From the NCBI GenBank assembly GCA_010093705.1, contig MU006096.1:704004-768003 (forward strand): a DNA stretch of 64,000 bases, in the 5' to 3' direction. Of this stretch, positions 6,250 to 54,822 are shown one piece after another (the stretch's first letter is position 1; each line of letters starts with the position of its first letter). Origin of the DNA: Patellaria atrata CBS 101060 (Eukaryota). Below the pieces are notes generated by a model that saw nothing but the letters and a program-made list of their open reading frames with translations, did not search any database and was not told the origin of the DNA. The translations under genes and the position numbers were made by a program.

Positions 6250-9098
6250 ATGCAAACCATCGGCAAATCGTCTGGAGAGTGCCTCTTCTGTGCCCTAGTA
6301 CGATCATGTCGCCCTCGACCTCTAGCGACGAGGGTCTCGTCCAAGAGAGCCCGCATTTCAGATTATAGGAATATAATCTCTCCTGTTCGCATTCGTAAAC
6401 ATTTTTTTGAGGGCAAGGTTTGATTTCCAGTTCCTATCTCTTTAGACTATTGCTAACTACATTATAAAGACCAGGGATGGAGCCTCGAATGCATTTGAGT
6501 CCACGCGAAATACAGGCTCCCCAAATTTCAAAATAAAGAGTTTCAATCATGACGAATTCCGGTACACGAGCCGTATGAAACCAGAAGACTTCAAGAATCT
6601 CATCATCGAACAACTGAGTAAATTAAGAAACGAACTATATGACCCTAAAGTTCTGGAGGGTATAGAACTCAGCAAGTCCAGTTTCGAAAAGAAGTATGCA
6701 CAATACTGCCGACACGTTGTCGACGGCGTTTCCATCTCTAGGAGCGAGCTCGCATTCTCCCTCCGTGGCGTGTATGGCCGGAAGAACGTCTTTGGTCTAT
6801 ACGAGCAGCTCAAGTACAATTTCTACGATTTCCTTACGGGAACTAGCTTTACCAAAACCGACATCCAAAATCAGAAAGCGTTGGCAGATCTTCGATACCC
6901 CAGCGAATGGTATCCCACGACTCGCAGGCTTCAAAGGACGCTTCATCTCCACGTAGGACCCACAAATTCGGGGAAGACGTATCATGCCCTTCGGCGATTG
7001 GAGGCGGCCGATTCTGGAATATATGCTGGTCCACTACGACTTCTAGCTCACGAGGTCTTTACGCGGCTCAATGCTAGTGGGAAGAGATGTGGATTGGTGA
7101 CAGGAGAAGAGAGGAGGTATCCCGATGGCGATGCAGACAACCTTCTCAAGATGTTTAGTTGTACGGTCGAGATGGCCCCTGCCAACTTGCACTGTGAAGT
7201 CGCAGTCATTGACGAGATCCAAATGATAAATTCGGAAGATCGTGGATGGGCTTGGACACAGGCGCTGATGGGACTATTGGCTAAGGAGATTCACCTCTGC
7301 GGAGAAGAGCGCATCGTACCGTTGATCGAGGAAATAGCAGCATCCATGGGGGAAAAACTGGAGGTACACAGATATAAACGCTTGAGTCCCTTACAGATGG
7401 AAAGTCGAAGCCTCGGGGGAAACTTGAATAAACTTCGGAAAGGTGACTGCATCGTGTCGTTTACGGTTGTGGGTATTCATGCGCTCAAACGTGAAATTGA
7501 GAAGAAAACAGGGAAAAGAGTAGCGGTCGTGTATGGTACCCTTCCTCCTCTGACACGCGCCCAGCAAGCTGCCTTATTCAATGATCAGGATAACGACTAC
7601 GACTTTCTAGTGGCAAGTGATGCGATTGGTATGGGGTTGAATTTGTAAGTTTTCTATTTTGAAGGTGGGAATTACGACTGATCGAATTATTAGGAGCATC
7701 CGGAGAATCATCTTCGAAACCGTCTGGAAATTCAACGGCGTCGAAAAGACCGCCTTACCCATCCACGAAATCAAGCAAATCGCCGGACGAGCAGGCCGCT
7801 ACCGCACCGCCCAGCAATCTATCCAAGAGAAGTCCCAGAAGACAGGTGACGGGGAGACCACCATCGCAGAGGATGCCCAAACGTCTGAACCCGCCCCAAA
7901 CGTCGGGCTCGTCACAACTCTTGAACAGATCGACTTCCCCCTCGTCGAGCATGCCCTCCGCTCCGAAGGCGATCCCATCATGACCGCAGGCTTGTTTCCC
8001 CCACAACATGTTGTCGAGCGCTTCGCATCCTATTTCCGTCCCGGGACACCCTTCTCCTACATCATGCTCCGCTTACACGAGATCTCCCAAGTACACCAGC
8101 GCTTCCACCTCTGCCGCTTACGGGACGTCATTGCCATTGCAGACGCTATCCAGCCGGTCCGCAAACTGACGATTGCAGATAGGTATCTGGTCACCGCCGC
8201 ACCGGTCAGGGTCAAGGACCAGTATGGACGGCAACTCATCAACGCGCTGGCGAAGTGTATCGGCGAGCAAGGCGACGGCGACCTCCTCTCGATCAAAGAA
8301 ATCGAACTCGAGATCCTAGACCAGGAGATTACAGGCACGAAAGCCCAACTCGCGGCCCTCTCCCGCCTCCATCAAGCGCTATCCCTCTACCTCTGGCTCA
8401 GCTACCGCTTCTCTGGCGTCTTCGTTAGCAGGGAACTCGCCTTCCACGCTAAGGACCTCTGCGAGAAGGCCATCGAGACTTGTCTCAGCCAGTTCACGTT
8501 CACGACGAGGCAGCGGCTCATGATCGCGGAGAAGAGGAAACGAAGGATGTTGGAGGATCTGGCGCAGCCGACGGAGGCCAAGGATATGGATCGGGGTGAT
8601 ATTGCTGCTGGTGAGGAGTTTGAGGAGACCCCGATCAGTGATGGTGAGGAGGAGGGGGAGGAGTTTGAGGGGACCCCGATCAGTGATGGTGAGGAGGAGG
8701 GGGAGGAGTTTGATCTCGAGCTTGAGGGTGTCGTGGGCGCGCAGCAAAGACGACAACGTCAGGAAGGAGGAGTTGAGGACCTTGATTTCGACCTCGACGC
8801 TGATCCTAACATCCCTCGTCTCCAACATAGTCCTTTACAGCACCTCACGGAGCAATACACGCAAGATAACTCCAGGGAAGACGCCGAGGCCCGAAACTTT
8901 GATGCCGAGTCCAACGTATCTTCTGCCGATAGCAGAAGCGAGCGGGCTAACTCCGAATGCAAAGGTCCGCTCTGGGGAACTCATGTAGACCAGGGAGAAT
9001 TGCAGAAGGGCGACAGCTCGAATCCAGAAAGCTCGGATGCAGTCCTGCCGCCGTCTGTCGAGGAGCCGAGGAGAGAGTCTAAGTATGGGATATGCTAA
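6250..9098 (+). CDS. SUV3: Mitochondrial ATP-dependent RNA helicase Suv3
   Basis: HVGPTNSGKT, YAGPLRLLAHE, IDEIQMI, RGWAWT, VASDAIGMGLNL, QIAGRAGR; proposed exons 6250-6417, 6470-7644, 7694-9098; basic presequence-like N-terminus. Confidence 0.94.
8613..8713 (+). repeat. 45-bp tandem duplication inside the SUV3 C-terminal tail
   Basis: gaggagtttgagg(a/g)gaccccgatcagtgatggtgaggaggagggg x2 plus partial third copy; encodes EEFE(E/G)TPISDGEEEG. Confidence 0.92.
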
Positions 9099-16709: not shown

Positions 16710-18282
16710 ATGTCCCTCCCCGGCCTCACCCTCCCCGGCCTCACCCTCACCTCCACCCCTCTTTCAGACCCAACACCGACCGCGACCCCGCCGCGCATCC
16801 ACGACCTCAAAGAGGGCACCGAATACCGCTTCGAAGTGCCGTTCACGCCGCGCGCGCAGCTCAGGCTTAAGCTCACCGCGGGCACGGCCGAGCTCTTCGG
16901 CACCGAGCTCGCGCTCAAGCAGACCTACTCCTTCGGCGCCGGGGCTAAGGGCGCCGTCTACACGTGGCATGGCGGGCGGCTGGAGGTCCAGGGGGAGGCG
17001 GACGAGTATGTGGCGGAGGAGACGCCGATGAGCGTGTATGCGAACGTGCATTTTGCGCTCGAGGGGATGCGGGGGAAGAGTGGAGGGGATACGGGACCGA
17101 GGGTTTTGGTCATCGGACCGCACGATTCGGGGAAGTCGAGCGTCGTGAGGATTTTGACGGCGTATGCGGTTAAGGCGGGGCGGCTGCCGGTCGTGGTCAA
17201 TCTGGATCCGAGACAGGGCGTGCTGAGTGTGCCGGGGAGTTTGACAGCGACGGGGTTTGGTGGTTTACTTGATGTGGAGGAGGGCTGGGGGTGTAGTCCT
17301 ATTTCGGGTCCGCTGGGTTTGCCGGTTAAGATGCCGTTGGTTTATCATTATGGGCAGGCGAGCTCGGAGGATAATCCGAAGTATTTCAAACCATTGGTTT
17401 CGAGGTTGGCGCTTGCGGTGACGAGTCGTTGGGAAGGTGAGGGGGGTGGCATGGTGGGTGATGCGGAGGCTAAGAGCAGTGGGTGTGTGATTGATACGGA
17501 TGGTGGGATGAGTACGGGAAAAGGAGGCTATGAGAACATTGCGCATATCGTCTCTGAGTTTTCTGGTACGTATATATCATTGTGTAGAGCAAGAATCTTT
17601 ACCTCTCCCATTACCCATCCCCTTTCCTCCAAGGACAAAACCCTTAGCTAACCCTTCCGTAGTCAACGTCCTCCTTGTCCTCGGCTCCGAGCGCCTCTAC
17701 AGCGACATGACCCGCCGCTTTTCCCCAACCCCCTCCGACTCTACCGACCCCGTCCACGTAATCAAGCTCCCTAAATCCGGCGGCTGCGTCCAGCGCGACG
17801 AGACGTACATGAAGACACTGCGGCACCACCAAATCCGCGCGTACTTCTTCGGCCACGGCAACACTACGCTATCCCCCTACACGCAAATGGTCGACTTCGC
17901 CTCTCTCTCCATCTTCCGCATCCCAGCCTCGACCTCGACCACCACCTCCTCCTCCTACGACCCCGGCGCCGACGACGACTCCGACGACATATACGCTCTC
18001 CCTCCCAGCTTGTCGAAGAACACGAAACCACGGAGTAGGATCTTGGAGCCTGTTGAGGTCGGCTTGGGCATGCAGAATGCGATTCTGGCGGTCACAACGG
18101 CGGATCCGGGGGAGAGCCATGAGGCGATTAGGGACGCGAGTGTATTAGGTTACGTGTATGTGGCGGATGTGGACGAGAGTAAGAAGAAGGTCAAGCTGTT
18201 GACGCCGGAGACGGGGCGGGTACCGGCGAGGGCGATTGTGTGGGGAGGTTGGCCCGAAGGGGTGGGAGATTTGGTTGGGTAG
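16710..18282 (+). CDS. CLP1: mRNA cleavage/polyadenylation factor Clp1 (polynucleotide 5'-kinase family)
   Basis: EYRFEV, GTAELFGTEL, YTWHG, EYVAEETPM..Y.N.HFALE, GPHDSGKS, NLDPRQG, GSERLYS, KSGGCV.R, IRAYFFG; intron 17566-17662. Confidence 0.94.
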
Positions 18283-42967: not shown

Positions 42968-45900
42968 TTAATTTGGCTGCTTTATTCCTAATTGTTCAAC
43001 CCTCTGGACTGTTTGCTCCGTACCGCCATGACTCCACTCGTTCGCCTTTGAATCACACGCCTCATACAATTGTCGAGCCAGTTGGCTTAGAACCTTCATT
43101 GTGGGTTTTTCTTCGCTAAGACATAATCGGCTCTCTATCCAGCTTAAAATGCCATTCCTGGTCATCAGTGTCATGCTACCCCCTTCCACCGACCTTGTTC
43201 GGATGAGCAAACCCAATATCTTCCGTTTCAGAGCTTTAGAGCTCTGTTGTGCACTGAACAGTGAAATGATGCGTTCATACACGTTGCAGGTACGGAAGAT
43301 TTCAAGATCCTTTGATACGTCGTTAGTAAGATGAGGGAGAAAGGCTGAGAAGGATTACTTACCTCCGGCGTACGGAGACCGTCTATTAGCCAGTCCATCA
43401 GCCATTCCACTTCCTTATGATACCCATCATCATCCGTTGGAGAGTTGAGCAAGATGGCTTTGATCCAGTATGTAGGTAACTTGCTAATTTCCCAAGTTGG
43501 GCCACGGAGAAGAAATGTGTTCACTTTGGCGTAAAGAATGTGGTCAGGGTTAGCCTGGACAGCAAGAGCGCGTGTAGCGAAAGTCCCAACTACATAAGGT
43601 AGAGCTGTTTCATCGAGCGATGGTGACGCGGATTCAACCAACTCCCCAAGTAGGAGGTAGATCTGTTCCCACTCCTCATACGACATTTCCGAAGCCTTAA
43701 CCCTTCCCATCAACTTGCGAATATTATACAAAGCCTGCCGTCTGATATCTGGGTATTTCGAACAAAGACATAAGATCAGTTCAGCAGCGGAACCTTCTTG
43801 TACAGCCTCGTCTACCTCCTTCTGCGACCATTTGTGCAAACCATGGTGATTTTCTTTCTCTCCCGGAGGAGGATTGAGCTCTATGGTGTTCGGCGAGTCA
43901 TCATCCTTCATCTTTACCTCCATGTTGTTGCTCAGGACTCCAGTCGTTGGGCTATCACTTGATAAAAGTTTGGGTAAAGTCTCATTCTTCCGGAAAGCCT
44001 TCTCTAATCGTTTCCGAAGCGAGTTATCAACAGTCTCCGTGATGATATTGCTTTGTACCAACATCAATATGGCCGGATTCACTCCGACATTTTCGAAATA
44101 CCTAAAAAGGCTGGCAAGCCAATCGGCAATCCATATAGTCCGCTCTGAATCTGGTGAGCTTTTTGATATGTATAACCATTGCTCAACCATCACCATCAGA
44201 CAGATAGTCGTAGGACTAGTATGAACATTGATTGAATGTTCGTTACTCGATATGATTAGCGACTCCAAGTCGTCCAAGTATTTGATTGGTCTCTTAGACA
44301 GCCTGCTAAAGCACTCATCGAGGAAATTGAGGACAGCGAAATTGATCTGGTCATCTTTTAATGGTAGACTGACAAGAAGTGCATCTAGAGATGGAGGGGA
44401 TGTCTTGAGGTCCAAAAGCTCATATTCTCTGACAAGTGATACTAGTAATGACTTGACCTGCGGCATTGCGTTAGATGCTGCAAGCTTCAGTATGGTTATG
44501 AATGGAGAAAGCGGGAGTGATTCTACAGAACATTAGCACCTATAACAGAATGAGAAATTACGCGCTTCATACCAGGCTTCTGCCACCATCGCATATTGGG
44601 GGAATAAGTGGCAATCTCTAATAGGTACTCTAATTCAAGTATACGTAAGCCCTCCTCCTCAGAGCTACTGGCAGTATTGTCGATACCTATTCTCGACAAA
44701 GCGTTAACGAGATGTAACGATGCGTCGAATTTTTCATCCAATGCTATCTGTGGAGTGACTTGATAATACAGCTTAAGAAGGTGTGTGACTGCTTCCCTCT
44801 GGAGCAAGTCGTCCCCCGATGTATTCTTATATGTAAAAACTACATCCTTTAGACTAGGGCACCGTCGAATAAACTCTGAGAGCAACCTTACACGAGTCTG
44901 CTGCCATGGCTTTGGTCGGGATTTGGAAGCTTCACCAAGCTTTTTCAAAACTTTCTTTAGCTTTTGAAACGATATCACCAGAAGTCTTACGGCAAAGAAC
45001 GTTATTAGATTACTGCTCTGGTTTAAACACCGCGTAAGAACCTGCTGATTAGCGGGATGTGGTAGAATACTCTCTATGATGGTATTGACCGGGGGAGGAG
45101 AAGTAGCATAGTCTCCAGTATGACCGAAATATTCTGGGATCGGAAGTTGTATAACCGAGAATAAGAACGAGGAGTAACCGATCCAAGTGCTGGTAAGCTT
45201 AGCGTCGAAGGAAAAATTCTTTTTCTTGTAGAAGTAATCCGTGACCAATTCCGGCGCGGCCTCGAAAATGGCGAGAAGAAGCCCTTGCTGCATCAGATCT
45301 GCATACGGCCGAAGGCTTTGAGCAAAAGTTGCTAGGGTGATATTGCGCGGTGGGCGTCGACGAGAAGAATTCACTAATTCGATACCAAGATCGATATCAG
45401 TATTATCTTCATCGTCACGCTCTTCCGAATCTGTCATCTTATTTGACCCACGGCCATACCACCCAGATGACGAGAGTAAAACACCGTTGTCGGGATTCGT
45501 ACATACCAGCATGAGAAATTCGTGCGCGACAACATCAACAGACTTCTGTTGGTCGGAAGATTTGGACTCCTCTTCAACATACCTGTAAAGGTTTGCAATA
45601 CTTTCAAGCGACCGTTCTGTCAGAAGGTTAGCTTTGCTGTATCTCGGTACAGTTTTGTCAGAGATAATGTGAGATTTAATGACACTCAGAACGCTGATGA
45701 TAGTTTCCGGTGTATCAGATTTCAAGTTATCGAAGAGGGCTTTGATGACGTATCCCTGTTTAAGTATATCGATCTTCGCACCTTCATCCTGATACTTAAA
45801 ATTTGCCAGAAGATATCGTATTGAGTTGGACCGAACGCTGGGCTTCTTCCGTTGGTCCTTTGCTTTTCCATCTGAATTGAATATGCTGAGGTTTCTTGCT

Positions 45901-46597
45901 ATGACTTTACCATCGAAAGTATAGTCTCGCCTCGAGTAAAGGAGTCTTGCCATCGCACCATCCTCGAAAGATACAATTTGCGTGAGCAATCGGATACATG
46001 GTGAAATGACGTAGTCCTTGTGCTTGGAGGCAGAATGACCTCGAGAGATCAACTTCAGTTGTGCTGGGTTAAGCACTGTTCTGCACAACAACAAACCCGA
46101 TTGTTTGAAATCCGAATGGCTGGATAGCGTCTTCATCAGGAGAGCGAGTACGGAAACAAGGGCGGCGAAAAGGTATTCATTATTTGTATGATTTGAGAAG
46201 GCCCAAATCTGCATAAGATCTGACAGGAATACTGACTCTTTATCATGCTTTTCCTTGGGCTTTTGCGACTCCAAATAATCCTCTAATATTGTCCGTTGGC
46301 GGGGAAGCTGGGCTTCTTCTTTGGGGTAGAGTATAGTCTCGAGAAACACTTTGAAACTCTGGATCCCTATTAACACATATTAGCAGTATTCTTTCTATTT
46401 AGGGCAGGCCACTTACCATTGCGCATCCGTGGGACGTCATCCTGTCGAAAGTTAAGAAGAGAGTGTAGTTGTCTTGAGGTAAAAACTTCTTCTGGCTTGA
46501 GAGAAGTATGGTCATGATGCTCAAGTTTCGGGCGCTTAGACTTCTGCTTTTCGTCGCTACGCTCGTCTGCGACAGCCTGAGCAGGCCTTTTGCTCAT
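42968..46597 (-). CDS. URB1: Nucleolar pre-ribosome-associated protein Urb1/Npa1, multi-exon
   Basis: Joined ORFs 46370..46597, 44523..46376, 43228..44466 and 42968..43282 with Npa1/NopRA1-like motifs (PSVRSNSIRYLLANFKY, IFEAAPELVTDYF, LTSTWIGYS, EGGSMTLMTRNGILSWI). Confidence 0.85.
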
Positions 46598-49559: not shown

Positions 49560-50628
49560 CTACGGATTGGGCGCGCAAGGTGCTTGACCACAATCCGGGT
49601 CATTATCATCCTGCCCTGGAACCGGGTTACCGTATTCCTTGAGACAAAAGAATAGTCCATAGCGCTTCCTGCAGGACAATCAGTATTATCTTCGGCTTCA
49701 ACGATTCCAACTTACTGATGCAGGGTAAGCGTAACTATCGGCATTGAGCCTGGCAAGATTCTTGTCCATATTACGTGTCTGTACTGGTCCATAGCCCAGT
49801 GGCTCACCGTTAGCATCCACCAGATCTACGATTGGTGCATTGTAGCTATTATGGTTAGTGAGACGCCTTTAACCTATATCCTCTACAAAGGTGACTCATA
49901 TGGAATGCATTATCTTATCATAATGCCTGAAAATGATCTGTCAGAGCTAGTCTATCACAACCAACTTTTAGGGGACATACGTATATTCATGCAAAAGGGT
50001 CATCCCAAGAGAGTTCATCCTGTAGCTAACATTGTCTCCGAGTTGATCGCAGGTGAGGTACCAGTTTTTCTTGTCTGGAGAGTCTGGATCCGCTCCGTTT
50101 ATAAGGGTGACTCCCTTCTTGTTAAATGCTCTCGGGCAAAGAACTAAAAACACATTGTTCGGGTTGTTTTGGTTGAGGTATGAGATCAGTCTTGGATCTC
50201 CACAAAGTCCATTCGCGTCGGCTTTTTGCAAGAATTATGTCGTTCAGCAAAGGATTTCCAATGATTCCGGCATCAGGGGGAGCAGTGGGATCGGTAAGTA
50301 TCGTATCAAACACCCTTCTCACGTTTGCTTTGTCCCCGGCGTTGAAGTATTTCAAGAATATCGAGTCATCACCGTTGTCAAGGTCGTATATTGCGTAATC
50401 ACAGAGTTCAAAAGCATCATTGAATGCTCCCTCGACTTTCTCACGCCTATTCGGTGGTGTTCCTCGTCAGGAGGTAAGTCATTGTCGCCTGTATCGGGCT
50501 CTCCACGCTTTAGATATCGGAGACGAGACTTGGTCGAAGGCTGATTTTGGCGCCTCAGGGCTGTCGTCAAACTTGCAGTAAGAAGACATGATGCCAGAAT
50601 GATAGACGGTCTGAAAAAAAAGCTGTAT
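49560..50628 (-). pseudogene. Secreted M35-like (lysine-specific/deuterolysin-type) zinc metallopeptidase pseudogene
   Basis: Signal-peptide-like start, FLKYF, LVLCPRAF, TLLHEYT|HY, GYGP, NADSY; start ATG>ATA, about four frameshifts and a GT>AT splice donor at 49899. Confidence 0.82.
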
Positions 50629-51538
50629 GTCTATTGAGCTAAATTCTCGCAGTGAATTGTGAGGAGGCGATGAACTCTCTCGTGAATCGACAGTATTCTA
50701 TACTTGACATAACGTCGTACAAAAACACCACATTTAGAAGGCCTCAGTCCAAAATGGTATCCAACTGCGGCGCTTGTATACAGCGTTCATCCTCAGTATC
50801 GAAATCGAGTATGAAGGAAACAATACCTAACATACCAGTCAGCCCTAAACTATCTCTGTACAGTGCTTGATTAGTACTCAATCCATGTTCTCCACGCCGG
50901 TGAATCATTGAACGAGAATCTAATTGCACATAGGTAAAGTCATACTGGGTTCCTGATCGATCGACGTCCAGCGGTGATCCGACGTACGGAGATAACGCAC
51001 ACAGTTACATTTACCATGCATGTAGCTACATGAAACCCTTTTGATCCAAGTCATCAGTTAGCGACCTATAGGTGGAAATATTTAGGAACTATAGGCGCAA
51101 GCCCTAAGGGTTAGACATAACAAGTCCAAGTTTGTGAGGGCGGCTTACAGCGACAAAGGTACATATGAACAAGATCCATGAAGCAACGAATCAAGAACTT
51201 AAGCTCAACTTAACAGGTGTTTAAGAACCCCAGATTCCTAATACAGCACCCCCAAACCAGAATTAGATCATACTGATCCCCACGTGCGATTTGCGCTTAC
51301 ATAGATAATAAGCCCGCACGCCACTCAGGCCTTGATATTCCAACCTAGTCTGCTTTCGTACGACACAACAAAGTAGCATCTGTATCCTGGAAAAATACCA
51401 ATGCGCATCCTACTTGACATTCCACTGCGCCATACCACTACGTCATAGTTAAAATTATCTTTCGGCGTGGGCAAGCTCCTCAGAAAGATAATAAAACCCT
51501 CCCGCGAGTCTCCGCAGAACAACGCCGGAATCCCCAAA

Positions 51539-52190
51539 ATGTCAGACAACACAGAACAAAATCAAACCGAGAGCCTGACACCCAAAGTCCTCATTTCCCT
51601 TACTCTTTCCCCCTCAACATATCACTTTTCCTCTCCTATCCCTCCAACCCTGAGCCTGAAGCTCACCTCACCTACGCCCTCCCTCTTTACCCTCCGAATT
51701 CCACATGGCTCGCCTCTCGACCCCATAGCTGCTATGAACCAAGGCGGCTTCCCCATCTCCGACCTCTCCACCACACCGCCAACTGAACTCCAGATCACAG
51801 ACCTGAGCGGGAACCTCCACCTCCCGGCACGACCGATCGGGACGCTCACGCTCGGACCGGGAAGGGAGATCGTGCTGCATGTCCCATTCAACAGGGGCGG
51901 GCAGAGGACGGAGCAGTTTAGACCGCAGCCTTGGAGTGTGGTGGAGAGGGGTAGGGTGCTGGATGCTGGATGCTGATGGGAACGAGACGGAGACAAGGAG
52001 GCCGAGTAGGGTGGCGAGCGTGGATGGGTTGGAGGCGGGGAAGAGATATCGGGTCGAGGTTGCGGTGGAGCAGTTGGGGATGGTGAGATGGTGGTGGGGT
52101 GAGGGAAGTGATGCAGAAGGAGAAGAGGTGCAGGAGGGGTTGGAATTTAAGATTGTGGATGGTCTGGTAGAGTTGGGTGTTGAGGAGTGA
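51539..52190 (+). pseudogene. Hypothetical fungal protein with a single frameshift
   Basis: ORFs 51467..51976 and 51879..52190 fuse in frame (FRPQPWSVVERGRVLDADGNETETRR...VDGLEAGKRY) if one copy of the 7-bp TGCTGGA duplication at 51957-51970 is removed. Confidence 0.7.
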
Positions 52191-52421
52191 GGTTTTGCTG
52201 GCGATCGATTGAGATAGATGAAAGAACAGCGACACCAATGGATGCTTGCTGTGCAGTACCTTTATCTAAAAAAAATCAAAAATCAATTACTACTTAATAC
52301 CTTTTTTTATTGTCCTCTCGATCATGCATTGTGTATGTCTCCGCCTTTTCCTAACAGACGTGGTTGTGATCGTCGTCATTAGCTGCGAAAAAAAGACCTC
52401 AAGGGAAAAAAATTCAAAAAG

Positions 52422-52625
52422 AAAACCTCGAAGGGTCCCAGAATACCAGGCGTACTGATTTTGCTGTGGCGAATATATTCAAGGGCTAATGCGTGCGTTT
52501 CGTTTCCTTTGAACCTCAAATGAGAGTCCTTAAGCAGCCACAGACGGGGGATGAACCCACGACCATCTGCAACGCAGGAGGTTGATTTGAGTAAGTACCG
52601 CGTACTACCACTAGGCTATTCGCCC
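52422..52625 (-). mobile_element. tRNA-derived SINE-like / Pol III-type element (candidate)
   Basis: Starts GGGCGAA; A box TAGCCTAGTGG (52618-52608); B-box-like GGTTCATCCC (52557-52548); ends with hairpin plus TTTT; 12/15 direct repeat flanking both ends. Confidence 0.5.
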
Positions 52626-53311
52626 GAGAAATTCAGAAAGGGCCCAGCGGTTTAGCATTCATAAGGTGCGGGAAGAAAGTACGTTTTAGATTCCGCCCGT
52701 GGCTAACTGAGCATGTTTCTAGTGATAAACTTTGGTGAAGAAAGGGAGAAAAACGTGACTTTAATGAAAAGGGGAAGTAGAGCAAGGAACAGGAGCGGGT
52801 TTTGAACTTTTCAATGATAGAAGGTTTCTGCACAACCCCACAAGGCGCTATACTACGAAAGAAAATCAACACACCAAAGAATGAAACTTTATACAACTTT
52901 ACACACGCATAAACTGAGTGGAGCTCGCAGTCTCCAACTAGTCTCTGACACTTTATTAACTGTAGTCTCGTTCCATTTCCCCTCACTTACAGCTGCGCAG
53001 GAGCTAGAACACAGTGACTCTTACATCCACACATCATGTTCCAGCAAATCTAGAGCAAAATGTTCAATCGGTGTCGTCTGACGAAGAGCTTGTAGGAGTC
53101 AGAGACGTCGATAGAAACTCGTTAGTTCTACTCCTTTGGCTAGGCTAGCCCCAAGTATGGTTAGAGGCATAACTCAAACTTAACCCCATCTCTTCTCCTC
53201 CACTTAATACAACTTCATTAAGAGAAGTTCTCGAGTATGACTCCATCTCTACAATATCAGCTTTAAAACAAGTTAGAAGACATGTCTAAATCGATGTTAG
53301 TACAAAGGTAA

Positions 53312-53571: not shown

Positions 53572-54822
53572 ATGTCATCCGCAATCCTTCGCCAGCGCAT
53601 TCGAGAGCTCCTCCCAAGAACACATTTTGGAAATCACCCACCAGGTCCCAAAAATTCCTTAACAGACGTCCCTGGAGTACTCGTCTCAACTCAAGAGATT
53701 CATAGCAAACCCGGGAAACCCGACGGGTCTATCAATACCGGTGTAACATGCGTCCTCCCGCGTAAAGAATTTTTCAACAAGGCCTGCTATGCCGGTCTCT
53801 TCCGCTTCAATGGCTCCGGTGAGATGACAGGGAGCCACTGGATCGAAGAGACCGGGCTACTACACTCACCGATCATTCTCACGAACTCGTTCTCTGTGGC
53901 TCCGGCTTACCAGGGAATCTATGAGTATTGCGTTAGGGAGTATGCAAATGAGAAGGGTCATTGTGATTGGTTTATGCTCCCCGTTGTTACAGAAACATAT
54001 GATGGGTATTTGAATGATATCGGTGCTTTCGCGGTGACGAGCGACCATGTTGTTAAGGCGTTGGATAGTGTAACTGATGCCCCTGTAAGAGAGGGTAACA
54101 CCGGTGGTGGCACCGGGATGATATGCCATTGGGTGAAGGGAGGAACTGGGAGCTCCAGCCGTGTGGTGCTGGGAGTCAAGTACTCGCCATCCGCAAATGG
54201 GGATGACATGAGTACGAAAACAGACTATACCGTTGCGGCTCTTGTACAAGCAAATTATGGCGGTCTCCGCGACTTCCGTATTGCTGGAGTTCCTATCGGA
54301 CGGCATATCATAGCTTCGCTCGCAGAAAAACTTAAGAACGGTGCGACCCCCGAGGATTTCATCGAAGGGGCCGCACTGAAGCAGCTTGAGCGGGCCAAAG
54401 CAAAGAAAGATGGATCCATCATCGTCATTCTGGCAACTGATGCACCACTCCATCCGTTGCAACTTCAAAGACTTGCCAAACGCGCCACTGTCGGTATCTC
54501 CCGCGTCGGCGGCATCGGGCACAATCCCTCGGGCGATATCTTTCTCGCCTTCTCTACAGCGAATGAGATTCCGGTGCAGACGGTTGGAATGGAGAGTAGG
54601 AAGGTAGATCCGTTCACACCCAGTGCATTTCCTGTTGATGTTGTGGACGATAGCACGATCAGTATGCTGTTCGAGGCTGCGGCGGAGGCGACGGAAGAGG
54701 CGATATATAATACTGTTTGTATGGCGGAGACAATGGTCGGGTTAGAGGGAAGGAAGGTAAGTGCATTGGATTTGGGGCTTTTGAAGGAGGTCATGGGGAA
54801 GTATGAGGGGGTGGGTGTGTGA
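53572..54822 (+). CDS. Peptidase family S58 (DmpA-like aminopeptidase), intronless
   Basis: [72 protein letters not shown] autoprocessing site, [19 protein letters not shown]. Confidence 0.93.

Follow-up and report, generated by a model that had tools for sequence, protein, structure and literature searches.

The window, a stretch of 64,000 nucleotides, is eukaryotic and fungal-looking by its gene content and Pfam matches and belongs to an intron-bearing genome. Pfam matches include Sec61/SecY, Sec1, Suv3, a glucoamylase (GH15), Clp1 and Urb1/Npa1, as well as Eap1, an MFS transporter, an S58 peptidase, an eIF2B subunit and a mitochondrial RNA polymerase. Several of the housekeeping genes are broken across adjacent open frames, a pattern expected from short introns. 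The homologues of Urb1/Npa1 (43228-46214, minus strand), Suv3 (6575-9098, plus strand) and Clp1 (16710-18282, plus strand) each occupy two open frames, which is consistent with short spliceosomal introns as are ordinary in filamentous fungi. The element described here is flanked by the S58 peptidase gene (53572-54822) and, on its other side, by a possible plus-strand gene that ends near 52190. The region 51449-52190 (plus strand) contains two overlapping long open frames (175 and 127 codons, counted between stops), which are proline/serine-rich and returned no match in a Pfam search; it may represent an orphan or fast-evolving gene with its 3' end about 230 nt from the element. No reverse transcriptase or LINE was identified in the 22 Pfam-scanned open frames of the window, which include 16 of the 17 ORFs of at least 250 aa.

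The element is read on the minus strand and contains a tRNA-like head with two putative RNA polymerase III (Pol III) promoter boxes, a body with several short inverted repeats, and a T-rich end:

52422-52625, minus strand: whole element, 204 nt from GGGCGAA to the first T4
52625-52619, minus strand: 5' GGGCGAA, read in the sequence
52608-52618, minus strand: A box TAGCCTAGTGG, starting at +8, an exact match to TRGCNNAGTGG
52594-52606, minus strand: AGTAC-GCG-GTACT hairpin between the D-arm-like and anticodon-arm-like parts
52547-52557, minus strand: B-box-like GGTTCATCCCC within GTGGGTTCATCCCCC, one mismatch to GGTTCRANNCC
52537-52614, minus strand: degenerate tRNA-like head, from a sub-threshold ARAGORN call
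52624-52617 and 52468-52475, minus strand: strands GGCGAATA and TATTCGCC (3' strand) of a putative end-to-end helix, from inverted repeat I1 and the predicted fold
52388-52425, minus strand: T-run cluster (T4, T5, T7, T7), read in the sequence, with T4 at 52425-52422
52405-52388, minus strand: second CCCTTGAGGTC-T7 copy, read in the sequence
52626-52640, minus strand: 5' member CTTTCTGAATTTCTC of a flanking direct repeat, 12/15 identical to 52421-52407
52407-52421, minus strand: 3' member CTTTTTGAATTTTTT of this repeat, inside a stretch that is also matched by a contig from elsewhere (X2 record 10, below)

All sequence features of the preliminary description were thus recovered, among them the 5' GGGCGAA, the A box at +8 (exact), the T-arm/B-box-like stretch (one mismatch), and the T4 end with its following T runs and second CCCTTGAGGTC copy. 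In sense orientation the tail reads T4-C-T5-GAA-T7, and the T runs at 52388-52425 likely represent Pol III termination sites, judging from the sequence. The hairpin near the end of the element reads ACCC-TTCG-AGGT and is weak. A CCCTT...T-rich motif is present three times around the element, upstream of it (CCCTTTCTGAATTTCTC), at its end (CCCTTCGAGGTTTTCTTTTTGAATTTTTTT) and after it (CCCTTGAGGTCTTTTTTT; 52388-52425 and 52626-52650, minus strand), which may mean that the terminator region was duplicated in tandem on a small scale.

Three exact matches to the A-box consensus TRGCNNAGTGG were found in the window against 0.83 expected, and at least three occurred in 9 of 100 shuffles. The two matches outside the element, at 49792 and 51422, have no B box, T run in register or tRNA-like surroundings and were dismissed as chance occurrences. 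B boxes alone are at chance level, with 27 window matches at up to one mismatch versus 26.5 expected. An A box followed by a B box (each with at most one mismatch, 20-70 nt apart) occurs only once in the window, at the element, where the gap between them is 50 nt; 0.2 such pairs per window are expected from 30 Markov resamples. The single B-box mismatch of the element is a T at the place of tRNA A58.

The preliminary description held that the element is not a tRNA, and this is upheld. ARAGORN identified no tRNA genes in the window or at the locus, either in default mode, with introns of up to 200 nt or with the -ps option. Only when the threshold was lowered to 80% or 70% did it return a poor, 78-nt tRNA-Arg(CCT)-like call at 52614-52537, in a register that differs from the one first proposed. 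Rfam yielded no match at gathering score over the window, whether to snoRNA, SRP, RNase P, U6 or other known small RNA families; at E values up to 10 it gave chance-level matches only on the element locus and no tRNA match in the 241 nt around the element. Furthermore, what follows the T arm has no complementarity to the 5' end of the element, and a 3' acceptor strand is absent. The head nevertheless contains an anticodon-arm-like CAAC-CTCCTGC-GTTG (anticodon CCT), a variable-loop-like stretch and a T arm, GTGGG-TTCATCC-CCCGT, in colinear order as in a tRNA, which indicates that it is a decayed tRNA; by sequence, the remains look most like tRNA-Arg(CCT). About 20 extra bases, formed by the AGTAC-GCG-GTACT hairpin, separate the D-like from the anticodon-like part. 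The best local Rfam match was snoU105B (14.6 bits versus a gathering score of 49, E 1.7). A tRNA-like leader in front of a snoRNA is the layout of SNR52-type genes, and a snoRNA behind such a leader was considered here and rejected, because C and D boxes are missing from the locus and the snoU105B match would include the B box.

Contigs of two DNA runs (X1 and X2), which belong to one sample and one study, were aligned to 52250-52800 at 80% likeness; the sample is probably the source of the window assembly. Within the window itself, blastn identified no second copy of the element, the best other match being 21 nt long (E 0.6). The contigs of the locus itself are exact, but they are interrupted inside the element at 52544/52545, where a 60-nt piece bridges the gap. 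Assemblers tend to break contigs at repeats. Diverged copies of the head or the tail, about 85-96% alike, were identified on at least five further long contigs:

X1 record 3, 2.7 kb contig: 52510-52600, 12 other letters, 1 gap
X1 record 4, 17.7 kb contig: 52515-52600, 13 other letters, 2 gaps
X1 record 6, 1.6 kb contig: 52538-52608, 9 other letters, 1 gap
X1 record 8, 30 kb contig: 52545-52616, 3 other letters, 2 gaps
X2 record 10, 20.4 kb contig: 52406-52474, 7 other letters, 0 gaps

The four X1 contigs recur in X2 (as records 11, 12, 14 and 16, respectively), and X2 record 10 fuses 52474 directly to 52593. Beyond the pieces itemised here there are 33 more matching ones. X1 provided 27 records, four of them at 99% likeness or above, 15 at 90-95% and eight below 90%; the 17 records of X2 are distributed as seven, six and four over the same classes. 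The summed depth of these contigs varies strongly along the locus:

Flanks: 339-447 in X1, 281-314 in X2
52573-52591 (peak): 4500 in X1, 3197 in X2
52421-52458: about 1700 in X1, about 780-900 in X2
52478-52496: 339 in X1, 281 in X2

Relative to the flanks, depth is thus raised about 10-fold at 52573-52591 and about fourfold (X1) or threefold (X2) at 52421-52458, and at 80% likeness it drops to single-copy outside about 52406-52629. As each of the listed long contigs has single-copy-like depth (310-460), we read the peak as about nine further heads and about three tails, an estimate that rests on one sample and on summed contig depth, which is not itself a copy number. Three modules can be distinguished:

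52510-52616, minus strand: head and first part of the body, common to most other copies (X1 records 3, 4, 6 and 8, and depth)
52478-52515, minus strand: middle piece specific to this copy (single-copy depth at 52478-52496, barely above it at 52497-52515)
52406-52474, minus strand: tail common to few other copies, with TATTCGCC, the weak hairpin, T4, T5 and T7 (X2 record 10 and depth)

The most repeated stretch, 52573-52591, sits between the two boxes, and the copies are therefore relatives of the element and not merely ordinary tRNA genes. Depth is also raised at 52269-52325 and 52725-52762, to up to 724 versus 281 in X2 and 866 versus 447 in X1. Both regions consist of A/T- or T/C-rich low-complexity sequence, in which matches at 80% likeness probably arise by chance; in one contig 52608 is joined to 52735, with 28 letters only on the shorter side. 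In a metagenome scan for relatives, a first search pattern returned no matches, and among the at least 119 loci listed for a second pattern none was similar beyond the seed (blastn, E up to 1e-3).

The preliminary description had left the choice between a dispersed repeat and a single conserved RNA gene to the number of copies, and the head and tail copies on several other long contigs, together with the single-copy flanks, come down on the side of the repeat. A single decayed tRNA pseudogene surrounded by chance motifs, to which the sub-threshold tRNA-Arg(CCT)-like call could point, appears very improbable, since what other contigs share extends to non-tRNA parts, namely the inter-box stretch, the body that follows the T arm, and the tail. 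The element is an ordinary SINE-like repeat copy and not a unique new RNA gene, while retroposition would be the probable route of its spread.

Between copies there are indels, and modules are missing or replaced, which is what decaying repeats would show. No RIP-like bias between copies was evident, with six transitions among 13 listed substitution entries. Where contigs cease to match, their loose ends (30 letters) were compared with the locus by eye. In one other copy the AGTAC/GTACT stem is retained around a different loop and the A box deviates at one position, one has a consensus B box and the same continuation as this copy past the T arm, and one follows this copy through GGACTCTCAT, after which the next hairpin strand (CTC/GAG) is broken. 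The exact complement of GGGCGAA is present in two other contigs about 20 nt past the point matching 52515; this copy has TTAGCCC at the equivalent site and a second TATTCGCC 13 nt further on. By depth, the consensus A at the place of 52551 is found in one contig of roughly six, which makes the B-box deviation a trait of the family. This position is invariant in tRNAs, and the deviation therefore counts against the reading of the family as SINE-like.

Some of these observations would suit a family of real tRNA-derived Pol III small RNA genes, each producing an RNA of about 200 nt whose 5' end pairs with an internal TTCGCC(C). The boxes, the tRNA-like +1 start and the redundant T-run terminators amount to a complete gene layout, the complement of the 5' GGGCGAA recurs in the two other contigs mentioned above, and a stem has been retained in another copy despite its changed loop. 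However, divergence between copies amounts to 4-20%, with indels and with some modules absent, and the middle third is unique to this copy. Moreover, the CTC/GAG hairpin is broken elsewhere, the site in this copy that matches the closing strand of the others has a mismatch (TTAGCCC), the locus has no Rfam family, and its fold is not more stable than those of shuffled sequences (z -0.85). On balance we consider such a gene family unlikely.

The preliminary description stressed that the body is rich in pairings, two of which exclude each other. The pairings AGTAC/GTACT, CTGC/GCAG, CTGTGGC/GCCACAG and GGCGAATA/TATTCGCC are all present, the last of them belonging to inverted repeat I1 (15 nt, 80% complementary), but their richness does not exceed chance. 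The element has a minimum free energy of -60.4 kcal/mol compared with -56.8 +/- 4.3 kcal/mol in shuffles, and 37 of 200 shuffles fold as well as the element or better. TATTCGCC is indeed able to pair with the 5' end of the element and overlaps GCCACAG by three bases, as would suit a unique, switch-like Pol III RNA that has two incompatible folds. Any 200-nt sequence, however, commonly offers alternative pairings of 7-8 bp, and the ordinary fold energy, the hairpins partly broken in other copies and the absence of a match to a ligand-binding or known switch family in Rfam leave this idea without support. The other copies in the genome contradict the uniqueness of such an RNA, and we regard it as extremely improbable; the element is a repeat and not a switch RNA, and probably a SINE.

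The flanks and ends of the element bear on how the family spread. The preliminary description interpreted the 12/15 match between the two flanks as a target site duplication (TSD). The match itself is present, and one of at least 12/15 anywhere in the two flanks occurred in 36 of 2000 composition-preserving local shuffles, but it does not appear to behave like a copy-specific duplication. The loose ends of contigs that cease to match at 52626 and 52620 resemble the 5' flank of this locus by eye, with about 19/25 and about 14-16/27 matching columns when small gaps are allowed, and X2 record 10 spans the 3' member. Other copies thus seem to share the flank motif, which would then belong to the repeat unit itself or mark a preferred target site of partly palindromic sequence, and this speaks against simple retroposition into random sites from +1. 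A local alignment of the upstream 175 nt with the element and its tail reached a score of 19, equalled in 65 of 300 shuffles and thus not significant; a longer flank repeat (CTGGG-CCCTT plus the 15-mer, seen by eye) is therefore unproven and not claimed here. Where a SINE-type 3' tail would be A-rich, a simple repeat or LINE-like, this element ends in T runs. For a family of small RNA genes, the shared flank motif would correspond to a conserved upstream promoter and downstream terminator context, and the upstream flank seems conserved in two other copies, which is unexpected for retroposed copies.

The same flank also invites a reading at the DNA level, in which the element is a repeat with a tRNA-like piece, either a solo LTR of the Helenus / TRIMp3 type or a fragment of a segmental duplication. 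By eye, homology to two copies seems to reach about 25 nt upstream of the tRNA-like +1, and fungal Helenus elements are described as carrying tRNA-like sequence in short LTRs that often occur as solo LTRs (PMC10886601). Depth at 80% likeness, in contrast, is single-copy from 52630 upward and from 52401 downward, and no TG...CA ends with an exact duplication of 4, 5 or 6 bp were found among the combinations of seven TG starts and nine CA ends. In PMC10886601, fungal Helenus elements are reported from Pucciniales and some Agaricomycetes only, whereas the genome studied here looks ascomycete, as judged from its gene content. A DNA-level repeat of this kind is in our view unlikely.

The family might also be something other than junk, comprising either Pol III genes for a helix-closed RNA of about 200 nt or an unusual, site-specific, U-tailed type of SINE. 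The latter could conceivably retain the U tail of its transcript and insert at a partly palindromic, T-rich, TTC-GAATT-like target, and a sequence-specific insertion target would account for the similar flanking repeats at different copies. We consider it quite unlikely that one or the other of these applies.

Our preferred interpretation, which we hold to be probable though by no means secure, is that the element is a diverged copy of a low-copy (about 10 members), dispersed, tRNA-derived repeat family that spread in a SINE-like manner, and that this copy is a decaying relic. The copies are dispersed over several contigs, the promoter-like motifs are present, and a tRNA fold is absent. In common with tRNA-derived SINEs, the element has a tRNA-derived head with ordered and appropriately spaced boxes and dispersed copies, albeit in low number. 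Of the SINE insertion proposed at the outset, the repeat nature is thereby supported by the other contigs, whereas distinct TSDs for each copy were not seen. The retroposition part is weakened by the shared flank motif, by a tail made of T runs where an A-rich or LINE-like one would be expected, and by the lack of a visible partner LINE.

In type-2 Pol III promoters, TFIIIC binds to the boxes, transcription starts near the tRNA-like +1 and it stops in T runs. The head of the element appears to retain such a promoter, with the A box at 52618-52608 and the B box at 52557-52547. Bound to the B and A boxes, TFIIIC would position TFIIIB upstream; Pol III would then initiate at about 52625-52635 (minus strand) and, terminating in the T runs at 52425-52388, produce a transcript of about 205-240 nt. 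Since a T4 run by itself terminates weakly in fungi, the RNA would probably end at the T5 or a T7 run. We hypothesize, by analogy with elements of this kind, that SINE-like retroposition is the most likely way in which the family spread, and that its transcripts would have been reverse-transcribed by an enzyme supplied in trans. The present copy, if once transcribed and mobile, is most likely a decaying relic without a function of its own and may now be inert.

Repeats with tRNA-like heads mimic small RNA genes, and their recognition as families prevents false ncRNA and tRNA annotations. If the shared flank motif and the T-run ends hold true, they would point to site-specific insertion or to a mode of spread unlike that of textbook SINEs.

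Among described elements, the miniature LTR retrotransposons Helenus / TRIMp3 carry a tRNA-like Pol III promoter within the LTR (Kojima 2024, PMC10886601). Like the element, they are short dispersed repeats that contain a tRNA-like piece, in which the cores of the A and B boxes are conserved; solo copies are common, and they occur in fungi. In contrast, the element lacks TG...CA ends and a 5-bp TSD, no second LTR, primer binding site (PBS) or polypurine tract (PPT) was seen near it, and the fungal Helenus elements are reported from rusts and some Agaricomycetes, not from ascomycetes. Closer in kind are the classical fungal SINEs MgSINE (Magnaporthe), Foxy (Fusarium) and nrs1 (Nectria), as summarised in PMC5063351, which are likewise short tRNA-derived repeats with a Pol III promoter in ascomycete genomes. 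The low copy number of the present family is matched by nrs1, for which 11 copies are cited in the same paper. However, these SINEs are longer (about 470-500 bp or more), and MgSINE is said there to fold as a tRNA cloverleaf, unlike the head of the element.

The closest described relatives in kind are the AfuSINE2 families of Aspergillus fumigatus. These tRNA-related, SINE-like families are low in copy number and 140-493 bp long; their A and B boxes are degenerate, and they do not fold as a cloverleaf (Kanhayuwa and Coutts 2016, PMC5063351). They differ from the present family in their TSDs of 4-14 bp, compared with a flank repeat that seems shared between copies here, and in their A/T-rich tail or ACT repeats, compared with a T-run cluster. 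Transcription was detected by RT-PCR for five of eight AfuSINE2 families, whereas that of the present element is a prediction. Compared by description only, both have a tRNA-related head whose boxes are degenerate and which forms no cloverleaf, followed by an extended region unrelated to tRNA. Both come from a filamentous fungus and are present in low copy number, with the about 204-220 bp of this element falling within the AfuSINE2 size range, and one AfuSINE2 family is tRNA-Arg-derived as well.
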